Shown here: in pieces, positions 1 through 10,491 of the stretch
Position numbering within the stretch: the stretch's first letter is position 1
How the letters are laid out: each line of letters starts with the position of its first letter
NCBI GenBank assembly: GCA_015523565.1
Contig: WAKA01000211.1
Location: forward strand, 1-10,491
DNA length: 10,491 nt
Direction of reading: 5' to 3'
Origin: Candidatus Heimdallarchaeota archaeon
Lineage (GTDB): Archaea > Asgardarchaeota > Heimdallarchaeia > Heimdallarchaeales > Kariarchaeaceae
Made by a program: the position numbers and the translations under genes
The notes under the pieces: model-generated
Database searches by the model: none
What the model was told of the DNA's origin: nothing
The model's input: only the letters and a program-made list of their open reading frames with translations

Positions 1-1005
1 ACATTGCAGTTTAATGACCTTACAATTTTTGTTGGAGACACAAATGCAGGGAAATCAAATATAATTGAGTTCCTTGCATTTTTAGGATCTTTTGCCAATT
101 ATGACGAGGGAAATTTTAGATCTTATTTGGAAAAGTTTGTCAGATTCAATTCTTGGATCGATTTATTCTATGACCGCAATATTGACAATCAAATAGACGT
201 TTCAATTAGCTATTCCAAAGATGAAAAACAAAAACAATTACATTTAGTGATTATAAGTGACGGTGAAGGATTAGAAATAATTAAGAAATTAAAAAACCAA
301 AAGGATCAAACTCTTGCAGAGGTCGATTTTGAGGGAGATTTATTAATTTTCGAACAAGAGGAACTTGAAGATTTCAAATCTGTAAAATTCTATAATTTCA
401 GCAAAAATTTCAATTTTAATGAAGAACCTATGAGTAAAAAAAGAAGCACAGCTTTAAGACCCCCAGATGGAAACAATCTCTTTATGACGATTTGGGCATC
501 AAAAGAAAGAAGAGAGCTCATCAATGATCTGTTTTCTCTGTTTGGATATCGTGCAGTGTTTGACATTGGTAACAAAAAAATCTTATTTCAAAAGCAGGAA
601 GGAAACATTATTGTAAACTTTCCCCTATCACTCCTCTCCGATACATTGAAGGCAACAATTTTTTATTACATGGTTCTTTTATCGAACTCGCATTGCGTCC
701 TCTGTTTCGATGAACCAGAATCTTTCATGTTTCCTTCGCATATCCTAGACCTCGCAGAAGACTTTGCAAAAAATCCAAAAAGCAAGAAAAACCAAATCAT
801 TCTGACAACACACAATTCTTATTTCTTGGAAAATTTGATTACAAAAGCCAATCTCGATGCCATCAATCTTTTTGTTTGTCGGTACAAGAATTTTCATTCA
901 GAATTCAAAATGCTTTCCAAGGAGGAAATAATGAAAATCAATGACATTGATCTATTAATGAACATTGAAACGTTGTTTGAGGAGGAGGAGGAATATTTCA
1001 CATGA
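1..1005 (+). CDS. ABC/AAA-type ATPase of the AAA_15/AAA_21 (AbiEii/OLD/PARIS AriA-like) class, 5'-partial
   Basis: Walker A IFVGDTNAGKSN, degenerate ABC signature LSLLSDT, Walker B/D-loop VLCFDEPES, H-loop ILTTHNSY. The frame is open from base 1 and Walker A lies only about 10 aa in, so the true start is probably upstream of the window. AT-rich (15/60 GC in bases 241-300, hand count). Confidence 0.85.
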   Translation, partial: TLQFNDLTIFVGDTNAGKSNIIEFLAFLGSFANYDEGNFRSYLEKFVRFNSWIDLFYDRNIDNQIDVSISYSKDEKQKQLHLVIISDGEGLEIIKKLKNQKDQTLAEVDFEGDLLIFEQEELEDFKSVKFYNFSKNFNFNEEPMSKKRSTALRPPDGNNLFMTIWASKERRELINDLFSLFGYRAVFDIGNKKILFQKQEGNIIVNFPLSLLSDTLKATIFYYMVLLSNSHCVLCFDEPESFMFPSHILDLAEDFAKNPKSKKNQIILTTHNSYFLENLITKANLDAINLFVCRYKNFHSEFKMLSKEEIMKINDIDLLMNIETLFEEEEEYFT

Positions 1006-1457
1006 TGGTTTATGTTGAATGTTTTAATGACACCTATTTGTTTAAACAAATAAAAAAAATAAAAGGAAATCTAGAAATAGATCATGCAGGAAATAAAACG
1101 AGGGTCATAAAAAAAATAAAAAAAAACAAGTCTGGACTAGGGATTGTTGATAAGGACAATGATGATATGGAAAAAGAATTACCAGGATCAGTCTTTATAA
1201 GAAAAAAATATGGAATTTCAGTTTATAGCTATCATAAGTCCATTATTATTGAGTTTGAAATTGATTTGGAAAACTGGCTGTATACTGTCGCAAGGAACAA
1301 TAAATTAAAACCAAGTGATTATAATCTACCAAATTCCCTCAACAATGATCTCCCAGGACATGTAAAGAAAATGTATAAGAAAAAAGGATATTCTAAGTTC
1401 ATTTACGCCCTCTTGAAATCTGAAGAATTTCAATTTCTTCTGTCACAGATTCCCTAA
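1002..1457 (+). CDS. Small TOPRIM-like protein (DUF4435/RloB/OLD-TOPRIM-like), putative nuclease partner of the ATPase
   Basis: ATGA start/stop overlap with the ATPase (1002-1005). N-terminal VYVECFND resembles the TOPRIM hhVEGxxD motif, GLGIVDKD supplies a DxD motif, and a later DLENWL resembles the ExEN motif of OLD/DUF4435 TOPRIM domains. Confidence 0.65.
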   Translation: MMVYVECFNDTYLFKQIKKIKGNLEIDHAGNKTRVIKKIKKNKSGLGIVDKDNDDMEKELPGSVFIRKKYGISVYSYHKSIIIEFEIDLENWLYTVARNNKLKPSDYNLPNSLNNDLPGHVKKMYKKKGYSKFIYALLKSEEFQFLLSQIP

Positions 1458-1512
1458 TTTTTGAAAAGAACAAACACAACCCCTTGATTCATTTTATGAA
1501 ACAGAATCTTTT

Positions 1513-1844
1513 GTTTCAACCTATTACTAGGGTTCTCAGTCAATGAAACTTGACTTACAACCATTTTTAAAAAAAATCGTGTCATGGTTTCAACCTATTG
1601 CGAGGGTTCTCAGTCAATGAGACTACTTACTATATTAATCCAGAAATTGCAGACCTTGTAGTTTCAACCTATTACTAGGGTTCTCAGTTAATGAGACTTG
1701 ACTTACAGCTATTTTTAAAAAAAATCGGGTCATGGTTTCAACCTATTACTAGGGTTTTCAATCAATGAGACCCAGTTGGCAAGGGAGAAGACATGAGATC
1801 TTGTCCGGTTTCAACCTATTACTAGGGTTCTCAGTCAATGAGGT
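1513..1844 (-). CRISPR. Degenerate CRISPR mini-array, 5 repeats (37 bp) and 4 spacers; consensus on minus strand GTCTCATTGACTGAGAACCCTAGTAATAGGTTGAAAC
   Basis: Repeats at 1513-1549, 1587-1623, 1661-1697, 1735-1771 and 1808-1844, each with 1-2 substitutions from the consensus. Spacers are 37, 37, 37 and 36 bp. Minus orientation is inferred from the 3' TTGAAAC end and a leader homologous to that of the large array. Confidence 0.92.
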
Positions 1845-1900
1845 CGTTATGTTTTTTCTATTCTCAGCCACCCTAATAAGCTTTTTCAAAAATGCATATG
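1845..1900 (-). promoter_or_regulatory. Leader/promoter of the mini-array (BRE-TATA-like)
   Basis: Minus strand reads TTTGAAAAAGCTTATTAGGGTGGCTGAGAATAGAAAAAACATAACG and then the first repeat. This is a purine-rich BRE plus a TTAT box about 30 nt upstream of the repeat, and it shares TAGGGnGnCTGAGAAT with the array-2 leader. Confidence 0.7.
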
Positions 1901-2235
1901 ATGTTATTTTTTGTTTATTTCATGCATTTGTGCATTCGTCGTTTTGATTGTTTCAAGATGGATCTTGATTGTTCCAAGTTGGAAAATACGTTGCCTTAAT
2001 CCGATCACTTATGCAATCTGGAGGGGGTCGTGGTTGAAAGGTTTCCAGTCCTTCATTGGTCGGGTCAATGCAATCAATGGTATTTACAGGTTATTTAGTT
2101 GAAAGGGTTTGGTTTGTTAGACTGCGTGGCACATAGTTCGAGGGTAGTGAAGAGGCAGTGTTATTTTCGTTGAAATTTTGCAATAAGTTGTAGGTCTCCC
2201 AAACAGTACATAAACCCCAGAGTGGATGATAGCTT

Positions 2236-3060
2236 ATGTTCACGAATATAGGCGGTGGGGTCACACAGCTGTGCAAGTTTGGGTTGCCCACGTTGGATGA
2301 GATTGTAGGCGGGGGTCTTCCCCGTGGGACGACATGGTTGATAGAAGATGAGATTGGGGCGGATGCGGAGCCGTTCATCATGTCATTTCTTGCGTCAGGT
2401 CTTCAGGCGATGGACTATATTTTTCTTCTTTCGACGGAGCAGACATTTGACCATTACAGGAAGACATTCCAGACTTTTGGTCGGAATCCAGACATGGAGC
2501 TCCAGACGGGTCGGCTTCGTTTTATTGATGGGTTCAGCGGTTCATATCAGCTTGGTCTATCTACAGGTGTTGCAAACCCTGCGACCACGTCATTCATAGG
2601 GGGTGGGGGGATGATGGACATGGATCATAATGATGGGATAGAGACATTGCGTGACCTGACCCAACCGCGTGAGATCAACGAGGCGATCAGGCGATCGTTG
2701 TTGCATGTGCAGGAGGGACCTGCGACGGGGGTTCGTGGGGCGTGCATAAGTCTTTCCACGATTATTTATTCGGCGGGTGATTTCCGGGATGTTTATACGT
2801 TTATCCAGAATCGGCGTGCGATGGACAAGTTGAAGAACTCGACGACATTGCTATCGATACATGCGGATGCCCATGATGAGAAGATATTGCGAAGCATAGA
2901 GCATGCGGCGAACGGGGTGCTGAAGGTTCAGAGAGTGGAAAGCGGAGGCACGTCGGCATTGGAGATAGAGGTTGTTGCGTTCAATGAGAAACCTGAAAGC
3001 ATAGGCAGGAAGGCGGCATTCTTTTATGTTGGGGGTCGGCTTTCGCCAGTGGAGTTTTAG
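2236..3060 (+). CDS. RAD55/KaiC-like RecA-superfamily protein with degenerate Walker A (probably inactive ATPase; Elp4-like N-terminus)
   Basis: FGLPTLDEIVGGGLPRGTTWLIE is the typical KaiC/RAD55 N-terminal motif, but the P-loop reads DEIGADAE instead of GxxGxGKT. LRFIDGFS and IEHAANGVLKV match the later family motifs. TATA-like TACATAAA lies about 22 nt upstream of the ATG. Confidence 0.85.
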   Translation: MFTNIGGGVTQLCKFGLPTLDEIVGGGLPRGTTWLIEDEIGADAEPFIMSFLASGLQAMDYIFLLSTEQTFDHYRKTFQTFGRNPDMELQTGRLRFIDGFSGSYQLGLSTGVANPATTSFIGGGGMMDMDHNDGIETLRDLTQPREINEAIRRSLLHVQEGPATGVRGACISLSTIIYSAGDFRDVYTFIQNRRAMDKLKNSTTLLSIHADAHDEKILRSIEHAANGVLKVQRVESGGTSALEIEVVAFNEKPESIGRKAAFFYVGGRLSPVEF

Positions 3061-3068
3061 TGATACGC

Positions 3069-3210
3069 CAATGGAAAGTTGATTTAGTAGGTTTCAGGGA
3101 GAGACAGGTCAAAGGAAAGTTGATTTAGTAGATTTCAAGCAGAGACAGGTCAAAGGAAAGTTGATTTAGTAGGTTTCAGGTAAGGACAGATTAATGGAAA
3201 GTTGATTTAG
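3069..3210. repeat. Intergenic tandem repeat, 41-bp unit, about 3.5 copies
   Basis: The core GGAAAGTTGATTTAG starts at 3073, 3114, 3155 and 3196 (exact period 41). The unit is approximately CAAAGGAAAGTTGATTTAGTAGGTTTCAGGnAGAGACAGGT. It lies between convergent genes. Confidence 0.9.
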
Positions 3211-3826: not shown

Positions 3827-4660
3827 CTATTCAATGAATTCAGGATATTTTCTGATCCATTCGCTCCATGATCCTGCATAGAGGGGGTAACGTCCCAATC
3901 CCAGATATTCTGCCAAGAGGATGTTGAAGCATGCGGTTACGCCAGAGCCGCAGTAGAATACTGAATTTTCGGAGATGACATTTTGGAATTTATGTTTGAG
4001 TTCGTCTTTTGGCAGAATGTCAAGGGTTTCAGAGAGGTTTTCTTTCCATGGCAAGTTTTTGGCTGTTGGGATTCTTCCTGCGAGGAAATCGGATCCGGCA
4101 TCCAATCCCATGTATCGTTCCCTGTTCCTTGAATCGATAGGGGTCATGTTTCCAGATTGGATATTTTCCTTCAATGTCCTTGCGTCAACCAGCGGGTAAC
4201 TTCCATTGTTCCATGATGTCGGCATATCCTTCAGTTTGGTTGGATTTCTGTTCCAATGGGATTCTCCCTTTTCGGTTGGCAGGTTCAGCCTTTTCCAGAG
4301 GTCAATTCCGCCCCTCATGACACTGACATTTTCGAAACCCAGAGTTTTGAGCATCCACCAGCATCTGGCGGCATATCCCCCACCGCCATTGTCATAGACA
4401 ATGATTTTATCTTGGACAGTCAATCCCAGATTTTCCAGATGTTTGATGAAACTTTCAATGGGAGGGAGTGGATGGCGTCCAGTCATTTCAGACACTTGAC
4501 CGCATAAGATCCCGTCAAGGTCAAGAAAGACTGCATGTGGGATATGTTGATTAGTGTAGAGGCGTTTTCCACCTTCAGGGTCTCCCAAAATGAATTGGGT
4601 ATCTATGAAAACCGCATCGTTGGTTTGAGAGGCATCAAGGGGGTGAATCAGGATATCCAT
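3827..4660 (-). CDS. sseA: Two-domain rhodanese sulfurtransferase (thiosulfate/3-mercaptopyruvate sulfurtransferase, SseA-type)
   Basis: HIPHAVFLD, GRHPLP, AARCWWML, GRIPTA, active-site loop YCGSGVTAC and C-terminal YAGSWSEW signature. Confidence 0.92.
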   Translation of the reverse strand: MDILIHPLDASQTNDAVFIDTQFILGDPEGGKRLYTNQHIPHAVFLDLDGILCGQVSEMTGRHPLPPIESFIKHLENLGLTVQDKIIVYDNGGGGYAARCWWMLKTLGFENVSVMRGGIDLWKRLNLPTEKGESHWNRNPTKLKDMPTSWNNGSYPLVDARTLKENIQSGNMTPIDSRNRERYMGLDAGSDFLAGRIPTAKNLPWKENLSETLDILPKDELKHKFQNVISENSVFYCGSGVTACFNILLAEYLGLGRYPLYAGSWSEWIRKYPEFIE

Positions 4661-4690
4661 TTATTCCACACACGGAGTCATTTCATATAA

Positions 4691-4820
4691 GTGTAGTGGG
4701 CATTCCATAGAAGTGTAGTGAACATTCCATAGAAGTGTAGTGGGCATTCCATAGAAGTGTAGTGAACATTCCATAGAAGTGTAGTGGGCATTCCATGGGA
4801 CGTAACAATGTTCCATAGAA
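4691..4820. repeat. Intergenic tandem repeat, 22-bp unit GTGTAGTG(GG/AA)CATTCCATAGAA, 5 copies plus degenerate tail
   Basis: Units start at 4691, 4713, 4735, 4757 and 4779, with strict GG/AA/GG/AA/GG alternation (44-bp higher-order period). In addition, the 29-mer GGCATTCCRTGGGACGTAACAATGTTCCA occurs at 4787-4815 and 4874-4902. Confidence 0.92.
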
Positions 4821-6235: not shown

Positions 6236-6375
6236 AATTACCTTGTCTGACTGCAATTTGATTATGAACCAGCTTGTCAATTGCCTTGCCTGATTGCAAT
6301 TTGATAAAAAGCCAGCTTGTTAATTACCTTGTCTGACTGCAATTTAATTATAAACCAGCTTGGCAATTACCTTGT
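6236..6375. repeat. Intergenic tandem repeat, 43-bp unit, about 3.3 copies
   Basis: AATT(A/G)CCTTG starts at 6236, 6279, 6322 and 6365 (exact period 43). The unit is approximately AATTACCTTGTCTGACTGCAATTTGATTATAAACCAGCTTGTC. It lies between divergent genes. Confidence 0.9.
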
Positions 6376-9633: not shown

Positions 9634-10491
9634 GTCGCGAACGCCTAAAACCTAGAAATAGGATTGAAACCATTTCTTGCACTCATATACAAGATGCTTG
9701 GATATGTCGCGAACGCCTAAAACCTAGAAATAGGATTGAAACAAATTGAGATATTCGGTTGCGGGAGTTTGGGCTCACATAGTCGCGAACGCCTAAAACC
9801 TAGAAATAGGATTGAAACATGATCCAGTTTGGCGGGAAGATTTGAGTGATTCTTGTCGCGAACGCCTAAAACCTAGAAATAGGATTGAAACTAAAATTCC
9901 TATCTCTATTTTTTATAGCGTCCTGTCTCGTCGCGAACGCCTAAAACCTAGAAATAGGATTGAAACGTCAGCTTGAATTTCTTCGTATATTCTTTCATGA
10001 ATTGTCGCGAACGCCTAAAACCTAGAAATAGGATTGAAACACTGCTGAAAAATCAAGATACATATTAGCCATAATATGTCGCGAACGCCTAAAACCTAGA
10101 AATAGGATTGAAACTTGAGAACAGAAGAATATGTCCAGAACATGGATGCAGTCGCGAACGCCTAAAACCTAGAAATAGGATTGAAACCCAAAGAGCCTTG
10201 CGAAGCTGGTCATACTGGGCATACGTCGCGAACGCCTAAAACCTAGAAATAGGATTGAAACAGGTACAGGAGTGACACGGCACCGTCGTCAAGGTCTTGT
10301 CGCGAACGCCTAAAACCTAGAAATAGGATTGAAACACTCATCCCAATTCACAAGTTTTCTCTCCCTCATATGTCGCGAACGCCTAAAACCTAGAAATAGG
10401 ATTGAAACGTTATAAGGTCAGTCACAAACTGTGACCTGAACCTGAGTCGCGAACGCCTAAAACCTAGAAATAGGATTGAAACGTTATAAGG
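9634..10491 (+). CRISPR. CRISPR array, 12 identical 37-bp repeats GTCGCGAACGCCTAAAACCTAGAAATAGGATTGAAAC, 11 full spacers, truncated at window end
   Basis: Repeats start at 9634, 9706, 9782, 9855, 9930, 10004, 10078, 10151, 10225, 10299, 10372 and 10446. Spacers are 35-39 bp. A CCTA-GAAA-TAGG hairpin is followed by the 8-nt ATTGAAAC handle typical of Cas6-processed class 1 repeats. Confidence 0.98.

Follow-up and report, generated by a model that had tools for sequence, protein, structure and literature searches.

How an ATPase gene and a small companion gene came to lie against a short CRISPR array apparently devoid of cas genes is the question raised by the left end of contig WAKA01000211.1 of Candidatus Heimdallarchaeota archaeon. 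The window, that is, the whole stretch of DNA analysed, is the entire contig (C211, 10,491 bp), and the host assembly consists of 233 contigs, is about 90% complete and has a G+C content of 38.6%. A preliminary description had proposed that the two genes encode a toxic effector that is held in check by, or works with, CRISPR RNAs (crRNAs) from the array. The analysis presented here leads to another answer: the left end of the window is very probably the 3' end of a type III-B CRISPR locus that was split by the assembler, into which a cassette of an ATPase and a TOPRIM protein, resembling a split OLD nuclease, has lodged, and which is closed by an ordinary array. The elements concerned are as follows.

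1-1005, plus strand: gene for an ABC (ATP-binding cassette) ATPase (AAA_21/AAA_15, SMC/RecF-like), truncated at its 5' end by the contig start; alignment with full-length relatives indicates that about 24 N-terminal codons are lost.
1002-1457, plus strand: gene for a putative minimal OLD-type TOPRIM protein of 151 amino acids (P0001); its start overlaps the ATPase stop by ATGA, and its own stop is at 1455-1457.
1513-1844, minus strand: small CRISPR array of five 37-nucleotide repeats, starting at 1513, 1587, 1661, 1735 and 1808, and four spacers.
1772-1807, minus strand: leader-proximal spacer 4, of which 34 of the 36 bases match the HD-domain region of the genome's own type I-B cas3 gene (C65:3868-3903).
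1845-1935, minus strand: CRISPR leader, of which the first ~50 nucleotides hardly differ from the leader of the main type I-B array.

The closest homologues of the 151-residue protein, which are also the only close ones (61% and 47% identity), are encoded in metagenomic contigs directly after a full cmr operon. The gene order in the cmr-linked relatives, whose proteins are 47-76% identical, is cas10/cmr2, cmr3, cmr4, cmr5, cmr6 and cmr1, followed by the ATPase and TOPRIM genes, and the pair starts 19-55 bp after cmr1 on the same strand (loci L001, L006/L044, L007 and L047). Two genomes of the genus (G044 and G046) have their genes in this order too, and so does L007, where a gene fragment upstream shares 66% identity with Cmr1. 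R1-type repeats are located 3' of the TOPRIM gene in L001, L006/L044 and L007/L008, with a conserved leader beyond them where the contig extends; the L047 contig ends at the TOPRIM gene. The operon of L001 is preceded by a CARF gene and csx15. Cas10 of the cmr operon has the GGDD motif and lacks the HD domain. Cmr genes as neighbours of the pair, one mark of a type III-B assignment, are observed directly in L001, L006/L044 and L047 and are placed beside it in this genome through another contig, C71, by a join that is itself inferred; the other mark, an associated CRISPR array with a leader, is present. The physical link of the pair to CRISPR that had been noticed in the window is real. A Cmr1 homologue in a member of the same family (G038) was considered as evidence on loss of the pair and set aside, because the operon order differs there (cmr1 then cmr2), which makes it uninformative on this point.

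C71 (5,373 bp) belongs to the same genome, carries cas10/cmr2, cmr3, cmr4, cmr5 and cmr6 and breaks off within cmr6. The proteins that it encodes from cas10 to cmr6 are 60-73% identical to their L001 counterparts, and a search of this genome's assembly for cmr1 found no such gene. In the order proposed here, an unassembled gap of ~1.3 kb would follow cas10 to cmr6 on C71 and would account for the missing part of cmr6, for cmr1 and for the ~24 codons that the ATPase gene lacks at its start; next would come the ATPase gene, the TOPRIM gene and the convergent array, which has a leader of its own. The window being an entire contig, the apparent lack of cas genes is an artefact of assembly, and the designation of the array as cas-less has to be given up in view of the cmr genes on C71 and in the syntenic loci. 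By synteny, the pair simply lies between a cas operon and its array, which is the arrangement that the preliminary description had named in advance as telling against its proposal. As a separate observation, three independent assemblies of the locus (window:1, L004:1 and L005:1) share an identical start base within the ATPase gene, which suggests a strain-level branch point or a break in the assembly graph just upstream.

The ATPase open reading frame matches AAA_21 (7.6e-15) and AAA_15 (1.6e-11) and contains a Walker A motif (GDTNAGKSN), a Walker B motif (CFDEPE) and an H-loop (TTHN), which is the set of motifs that characterizes the ABC ATPases of the OLD family. Across 16 relatives, the corresponding GxxNxGKSN, (D/E)EPE and THNPY show little or no variation. 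The best PADLOC model is AriA (6.9e-15), with HEC-01A and AbiLi also matching, and the full-length ATPase of 354 residues matches SMC_N (9e-7) and recF (5e-6). The ATGA overlap of the two genes at 1002-1005, originally described as translational coupling, is confirmed, and the base counts given for the AT-rich block are exact (15 G+C in 60 at 241-300 and 35 in 60 at 2641-2700). The G+C content is 32.6% for the ATPase gene and 29.2% for the 151-residue protein gene, compared with 51% for the next gene. Scans against domain libraries detected no CARF, SAVED or other known signal-sensing domain in either protein.

The 151-residue protein gives no match in Pfam (including the Toprim families and DUF4435), NCBIfam or PADLOC; its best sequence match in the PDB has an E-value of 0.13, and Foldseek of its model against the PDB returns nothing at or below 1e-3. 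Its AlphaFold model has a mean predicted local distance difference test score (pLDDT) of 94 and a predicted template modelling score of 0.87. An exhaustive structural search with this model yields the Thermus OLD nuclease (Z 8.7), GajA (Z 7.6), the C-terminal region of Burkholderia OLD (BpOLD; Z 7.3), PH0156 (DUF3226; Z 7.0), Retron Eco2 (Z 5.8) and AriB (Z 5.8), although Z-scores of 7-8 are by themselves common in such searches. The TOPRIM assignment carries weight because the top matches are coherent and the motif positions fit, a Glu following strand 1 and DxD following strand 3. The acidic and catalytic set consists of E6, D10, H28, K32, D50-x-D52 and E90; in the model, E6 follows the strand 2-5 and D50-x-D52 lies at the end of the strand 44-50. 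In an alignment of 77 family members, E6 and D10 are invariant and C7, H28, K32, D50, D52, E90 and W92 are at least 90% conserved; a weak DUF3226 match is seen in two of the 77. These data support an OLD-type TOPRIM fold with an intact acidic motif set, which would make the protein a putative nuclease, and the TOPRIM-like character suspected at the outset holds. So does the wider assignment of the two genes to ABC ATPase and TOPRIM pairs of the OLD, PARIS and Gabija kind. The family, all members of which are ~150-170 residues long and unnamed, comprises 105 cluster representatives by exhaustive search and at least 290 clusters by profile search.

The TOPRIM genes of L007 and L001 (L007:1964-2443 and L001:9392-9847) share only ~30-33% identity, compared with 59% for the adjacent ATPase and 66% for Cmr1, and the catalytic residues are retained in the L007 TOPRIM protein despite this fast divergence. 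That the L007 gene had been swapped in was considered and rejected: fast divergence is more likely, because the tree places it within the cmr-linked clade, on a long branch. Such rapid divergence could reflect an arms race with inhibitors.

Structure prediction for the full-length L001 pair suggests that the ATPase binds the 151-residue protein. The predicted complex scores 0.64 and the best control 0.00; this mark is attained by 58 of 80 solved complexes and by 2 of 110 mismatched pairs, counts that are approximate since custom alignments were used. Contacts agree between runs by at least 95%, and the pLDDT of the partner is at least 83. The predicted interface takes in TOPRIM residues 7-8, 30-34 and 52-54, that is, the active-site face. 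Because the structures of AriA-AriB and GajA have been solved, this result may mirror a likeness to known structures and may not be independent evidence.

The ATPase gene adjoins the TOPRIM gene in every locus examined. Among 83 genomes of the class that were searched, 15 carry the family, and in 12 of these the pair occurs without cmr genes. Stand-alone pairs, the only kind met outside the genus of the window, are found in Methanoperedens, in a metagenome-assembled genome of Njordarchaeia, in Bacteroidales, in one further metagenomic contig and in 11 loci of this class. Their neighbours are partly defence-like (TIR, methylase and UvrD-like helicase) and partly housekeeping genes, and no Cas families appeared among them. 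Repeats are absent from the vicinity of 13 of the 14 stand-alone pairs checked. Two stand-alone loci have particular surroundings. In L042 (G022:C211; 2393-3560 and 3590-5145), an unrelated 16-repeat array precedes the pair, its degenerate trailer end lying ~70 bp from the start of the pair, and a UvrD-like helicase is found upstream; in L037 (G035:C166; 659-4544), the order is ATPase, TOPRIM and UvrD-like helicase, resembling a split Gabija system, and the ATPase may be frameshifted.

Phylogenetic trees place the cmr-linked ATPases in one clade (100/100) and the cmr-linked TOPRIM proteins in one clade (100/99), which argues for a single capture event. The stems of these clades are long (1.46 and 1.37 in the two trees), and in three diverged loci the pair is poorer in G+C than the cmr genes by ~10 points. 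A two-gene cassette that is mostly stand-alone would thus have been captured once at the end of the cmr operon and would now be co-transcribed with it. The ATPase and the 151-residue protein would together constitute a split nuclease of the OLD family, in which, as PARIS and Gabija suggest, the ABC ATPase may act as a sensor that holds the small TOPRIM nuclease by its active-site face. A trigger would then free or activate the nuclease, which would cut DNA or tRNA and abort the infection, as would be expected from PARIS, Gabija and OLD. A self-contained defence cassette within a CRISPR locus is the default reading here, and the pair is probably, if with limited confidence, an autonomous cassette that rides the operon.

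Several points weigh against the view that the window carries the end of a split type III-B locus with a lodged cassette. No overlap of contig ends that would join C71, C65 and C211 was found, and because the ends of C71 and C211 do not overlap, the join between these two contigs rests on synteny. The cmr-linked copies all come from one genus-level clade and represent one evolutionary event, which does not distinguish a lodged cassette from a recruited accessory. Finally, the long stems, the tight spacing, the HD-less Cas10 and the crenarchaeal pairs described in the literature (PMC3973734, PMC6546367) lean somewhat towards a functional link between the pair and the Cmr complex.

Such a link is the core of the alternative that survives best, although it is judged unlikely: the pair may be a true accessory effector of Cmr, in which binding of target RNA activates the ATPase and TOPRIM protein and so provides the DNase or RNase arm that the HD-less Cas10 lacks. 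Activation might involve docking of the pair on Cmr, the GGDD-active Cas10 (by way of cyclic oligoadenylate or of the ATP that it consumes) or nucleic acid that becomes exposed. The pair keeps its place in the operon, 19-55 bp beyond cmr1, in at least five diverged loci, Cas10 has GGDD without HD, and stems as long as those of the cmr-linked clades would be expected after a change of role. Consistently, the catalytic residues are kept while the TOPRIM protein diverges to ~30% identity, and the Cas_RecF/RFas pairs, with a partner of ~160-170 residues, co-evolve with crenarchaeal type III systems (PMC3973734, PMC6546367). However, there was one capture in one genus, and most family members, including those in 12 of the 15 class genomes that carry the family, occur in pairs without cmr. 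In addition, the domain scans of both proteins are negative for CARF, SAVED and other known sensing domains, and a CARF effector is already present at the locus in relatives. Slightly more doubtful still is the specific proposal that an HD-less III-B complex recruited a split OLD ATPase-TOPRIM pair as an in-operon output arm, triggered by Cmr without CARF or SAVED, and that Cas_RecF/RFas represents the same invention. If this were true, it would amount to a second, signal-domain-free route that couples type III systems to an abortive nuclease. If the cassette is cued by Cmr, it would represent a new type of effector coupling in type III systems and would provide a fold and a mechanism for the long-uncharacterised Cas_RecF/RFas.

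With the lodged cassette retained as the preferred reading of the pair, the array remains to be explained. Its first repeat is located 55 bp past the TOPRIM stop, at 1513, and it comprises five repeats, as had been stated. Each repeat carries one or two substitutions, which differ between repeats, and in the repeat at the leader junction the final two bases are changed (GT for AC on the plus strand). Spacers 1 and 3, identical at 34 of 37 bases, reflect the duplication and later divergence of a two-unit block. The array in the window appears to grow by duplication and drift and not by uptake. The leader lies on the right, the degenerate repeats of the relatives lie at the TOPRIM-side (left) end, and L008, which represents the L007 locus, carries additional spacers on the leader (right) side. 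Together, these features establish transcription on the minus strand, convergent with the pair, in agreement with the preliminary description, and the extra spacers of L008 show that such arrays still take up spacers. The leader contains a TATA-like CTTATTAG on the minus strand (plus-strand coordinates 1873-1880) that is conserved in L001, L006, L007 and L047, as are the ~50 nucleotides beside the last repeat. The promoter previously assigned to the array is a putative one, based on this conserved TATA-like element.

The same genome carries a type I-B operon on contig C65, with cas8, cas7, cas5, cas3, cas6 and csx15, followed by an array that continues on C137 and C182. The repeat of the small array differs from that of the type I-B array (C65/C137/C182) at 4-5 positions, or at 6 for the leader-proximal copy. 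The small array is a sister copy of the type I-B leader and repeat, and its transcript would most likely be processed by the type I-B Cas6 and loaded into Cmr. Its spacers are unrelated to those of the other loci, and L006 has one repeat and a leader only. When the four spacers were compared with C211:1-1512, the leader region and C71, including the promoter upstream of cas10, the longest match was 8-10 nucleotides, which is within the range of shuffled sequences; spacer-like complementarity to the promoter or 5' region of a neighbouring gene, the mark of CreTA, was thus not found. Spacer 2 has a 12-nucleotide match inside the type I-B cas8 gene; when this is extended, no more than 21 of 37 bases agree, and the match was treated as chance. 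An exact search of viral contigs with spacers 1/3, 2 and 4 found nothing, and an Rfam scan of the window gave no match. Judged from its sequence, the element is an ordinary small CRISPR array and not a CreTA-like antitoxin, because its repeat family and leader are common to the type I-B array and spacers have been gained in a sister population. Within this genome, the small array gives the impression of being frozen and drifting. In the type I-B array itself, the spacers at the trailer end are entirely different in L054 (12124-12590) and in C65 of this genome (7476-7822), although the two assemblies have identical cas3 genes; the sampled population contains two variants of this array.

Spacer 4 deserves separate consideration because of its match to cas3, which none of 200 shuffles equals. 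The site is identical in L054 (8516-8551). The two differences between spacer and gene, at crRNA positions 7 and 17, are both synonymous transitions. A crRNA from the minus strand would be antisense to the cas3 mRNA, and there is no pairing between the 3' flank and the crRNA tag. In cas3 genes at a greater distance (78% protein identity), seven differences are seen; no site with three or fewer mismatches was present in 82 other genomes of the class, and a search for spacer 4 in metagenomes of the Joint Genome Institute found nothing. A drift of the same size, ~4-5%, is seen in the repeats, in the duplicated spacer and in the mismatches of spacer 4. The simplest reading is that spacer 4 is an old spacer acquired from self or from a very close relative, after which the array decayed. 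The antisense match of 34 in 36 bases, the unpaired flank and the synonymous nature and position of the mismatches would also be expected if the array were a cross-regulatory device, in which the leader-proximal crRNA guides Cmr to the type I-B cas3 mRNA and so damps or senses type I expression. This is improbable, as it is a single case, the spacers of the other loci do not match cas genes, and the shared drift fits an old self spacer in a frozen array, which is a classical signature of autoimmunity. Read as an old spacer, the near-self cas3 match in a drifting array is a natural example of self-derived uptake followed by array decay.

The weakest explanation is the one from which the question arose, a CreTA-like addiction or regulatory module in which crRNA-like RNAs of the array, with Cas proteins acting in trans, repress a toxic pair; arrays do recur beside the pair in all cmr-linked loci and the stand-alone pair of L042 also adjoins one, but the idea is extremely improbable, as the spacers resemble neither the pair and its flanks nor the leader region or the cmr contig more than chance would allow, spacers are completely different between loci, the leader is a normal one common to the type I-B array and spacers are acquired, L006 keeps the pair with a single repeat, nearly all stand-alone pairs checked lack repeats, cas genes are adjacent by synteny, and type III mini-arrays were found to have neither targets nor conservation in a survey (10.1101/2023.03.03.530964). 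The RNA-controlled addiction module therefore dissolves into an assembly artefact and an ordinary CRISPR array, and the arrangement is real and mostly routine. What is left is an uncatalogued, widespread cassette of a ~350-residue ABC ATPase and a ~151-residue minimal OLD-type TOPRIM protein, the latter occurring in the clusters counted above as a putative nuclease without a Pfam, NCBIfam or PADLOC model, and a single lineage that has this cassette fixed at the end of a cmr operon with an HD-less Cas10.

Other features of the window lie to the right of these elements. Three mutually unrelated intergenic tandem repeats are located at 3059-3210 (period 41 bp), 4657-4818 (22 bp) and 6236-6374 (43 bp). 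At 9634-10491, a second CRISPR array of 12 identical 37-nucleotide repeats, which belong to a different family (GTCGCGAAC...ATTGAAAC), is cut off by the end of the contig. Spacer 11 of this array and one of the type I-B spacers on C137 overlap, with 31 of 33 bases in agreement, and therefore the two arrays carry memory of the same invader region.

Compared with known systems, the pair resembles PARIS (AriA/AriB; OLD family class 4) in having two adjacent, coupled genes for an ABC ATPase and a separate TOPRIM nuclease. AriA is the PADLOC model that best matches the ATPase, although HEC-01A and AbiLi match as well, AriB is among the structural matches of the partner (Z 5.8), and in the predicted complex the ATPase covers the active-site face of the nuclease. 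However, the TOPRIM partner has 151 residues here as against ~300 (35 kDa) in AriB and matches neither an AriB nor a DUF4435 model, so that an AriB-type partner is lacking, and the ATPase has ~350 residues as against 55 kDa for AriA. OLD class 4 has been reported in bacteria only (PMC12796447), whereas the present family occurs in archaea and bacteria, and the pair described here sits within a cmr operon. With Gabija (OLD class 2) and the class 1 OLD nucleases, the likeness lies in the fold, the TOPRIM domains of Thermus OLD, GajA and Burkholderia OLD being nearest, and in the same E...D / DxD / E acidic pattern; a UvrD-like helicase lies beside the pair in two stand-alone relatives, as in Gabija. 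In contrast to GajA, in which ATPase and TOPRIM are fused, they are encoded by separate genes here, and a helicase is lacking from both the window and the cmr-linked loci, so that the combination of a fused GajA with the UvrD-like GajB is not seen.

Small, partly degenerate arrays beside cas-linked genes are also known from CreTA and from regulatory mini-arrays. Unlike those, the array described here has full-length spacers, a normal leader and spacer uptake in a sister population, and it shows no partial match to the promoter of a neighbouring gene. The survey cited above found neither targets nor positional conservation for type III mini-arrays (10.1101/2023.03.03.530964), whereas the position of the array is conserved here. 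The nearest parallel in gene content comes from crenarchaeal type III loci, in which an SMC/RecF-like ATPase of ~330-350 residues is always paired with an unmatched protein of ~150-170 residues (Cas_RecF/RFas; PMC3973734), corresponding to clusters 17 and 83/84 of a later analysis (PMC6546367), with VMUT_1481/VMUT_1493 and P186_0874/P186_0873 as examples. The ~350-residue ATPase and the unmatched 151-residue protein beside cmr1 fit this description. The published pairs are from Crenarchaeota and in most cases adjoin III-A and other type III modules, and no TOPRIM fold was reported for RFas (PMC3973734, PMC6546367), whereas the pair described here belongs to an Asgard-class genome and to a type III-B locus.

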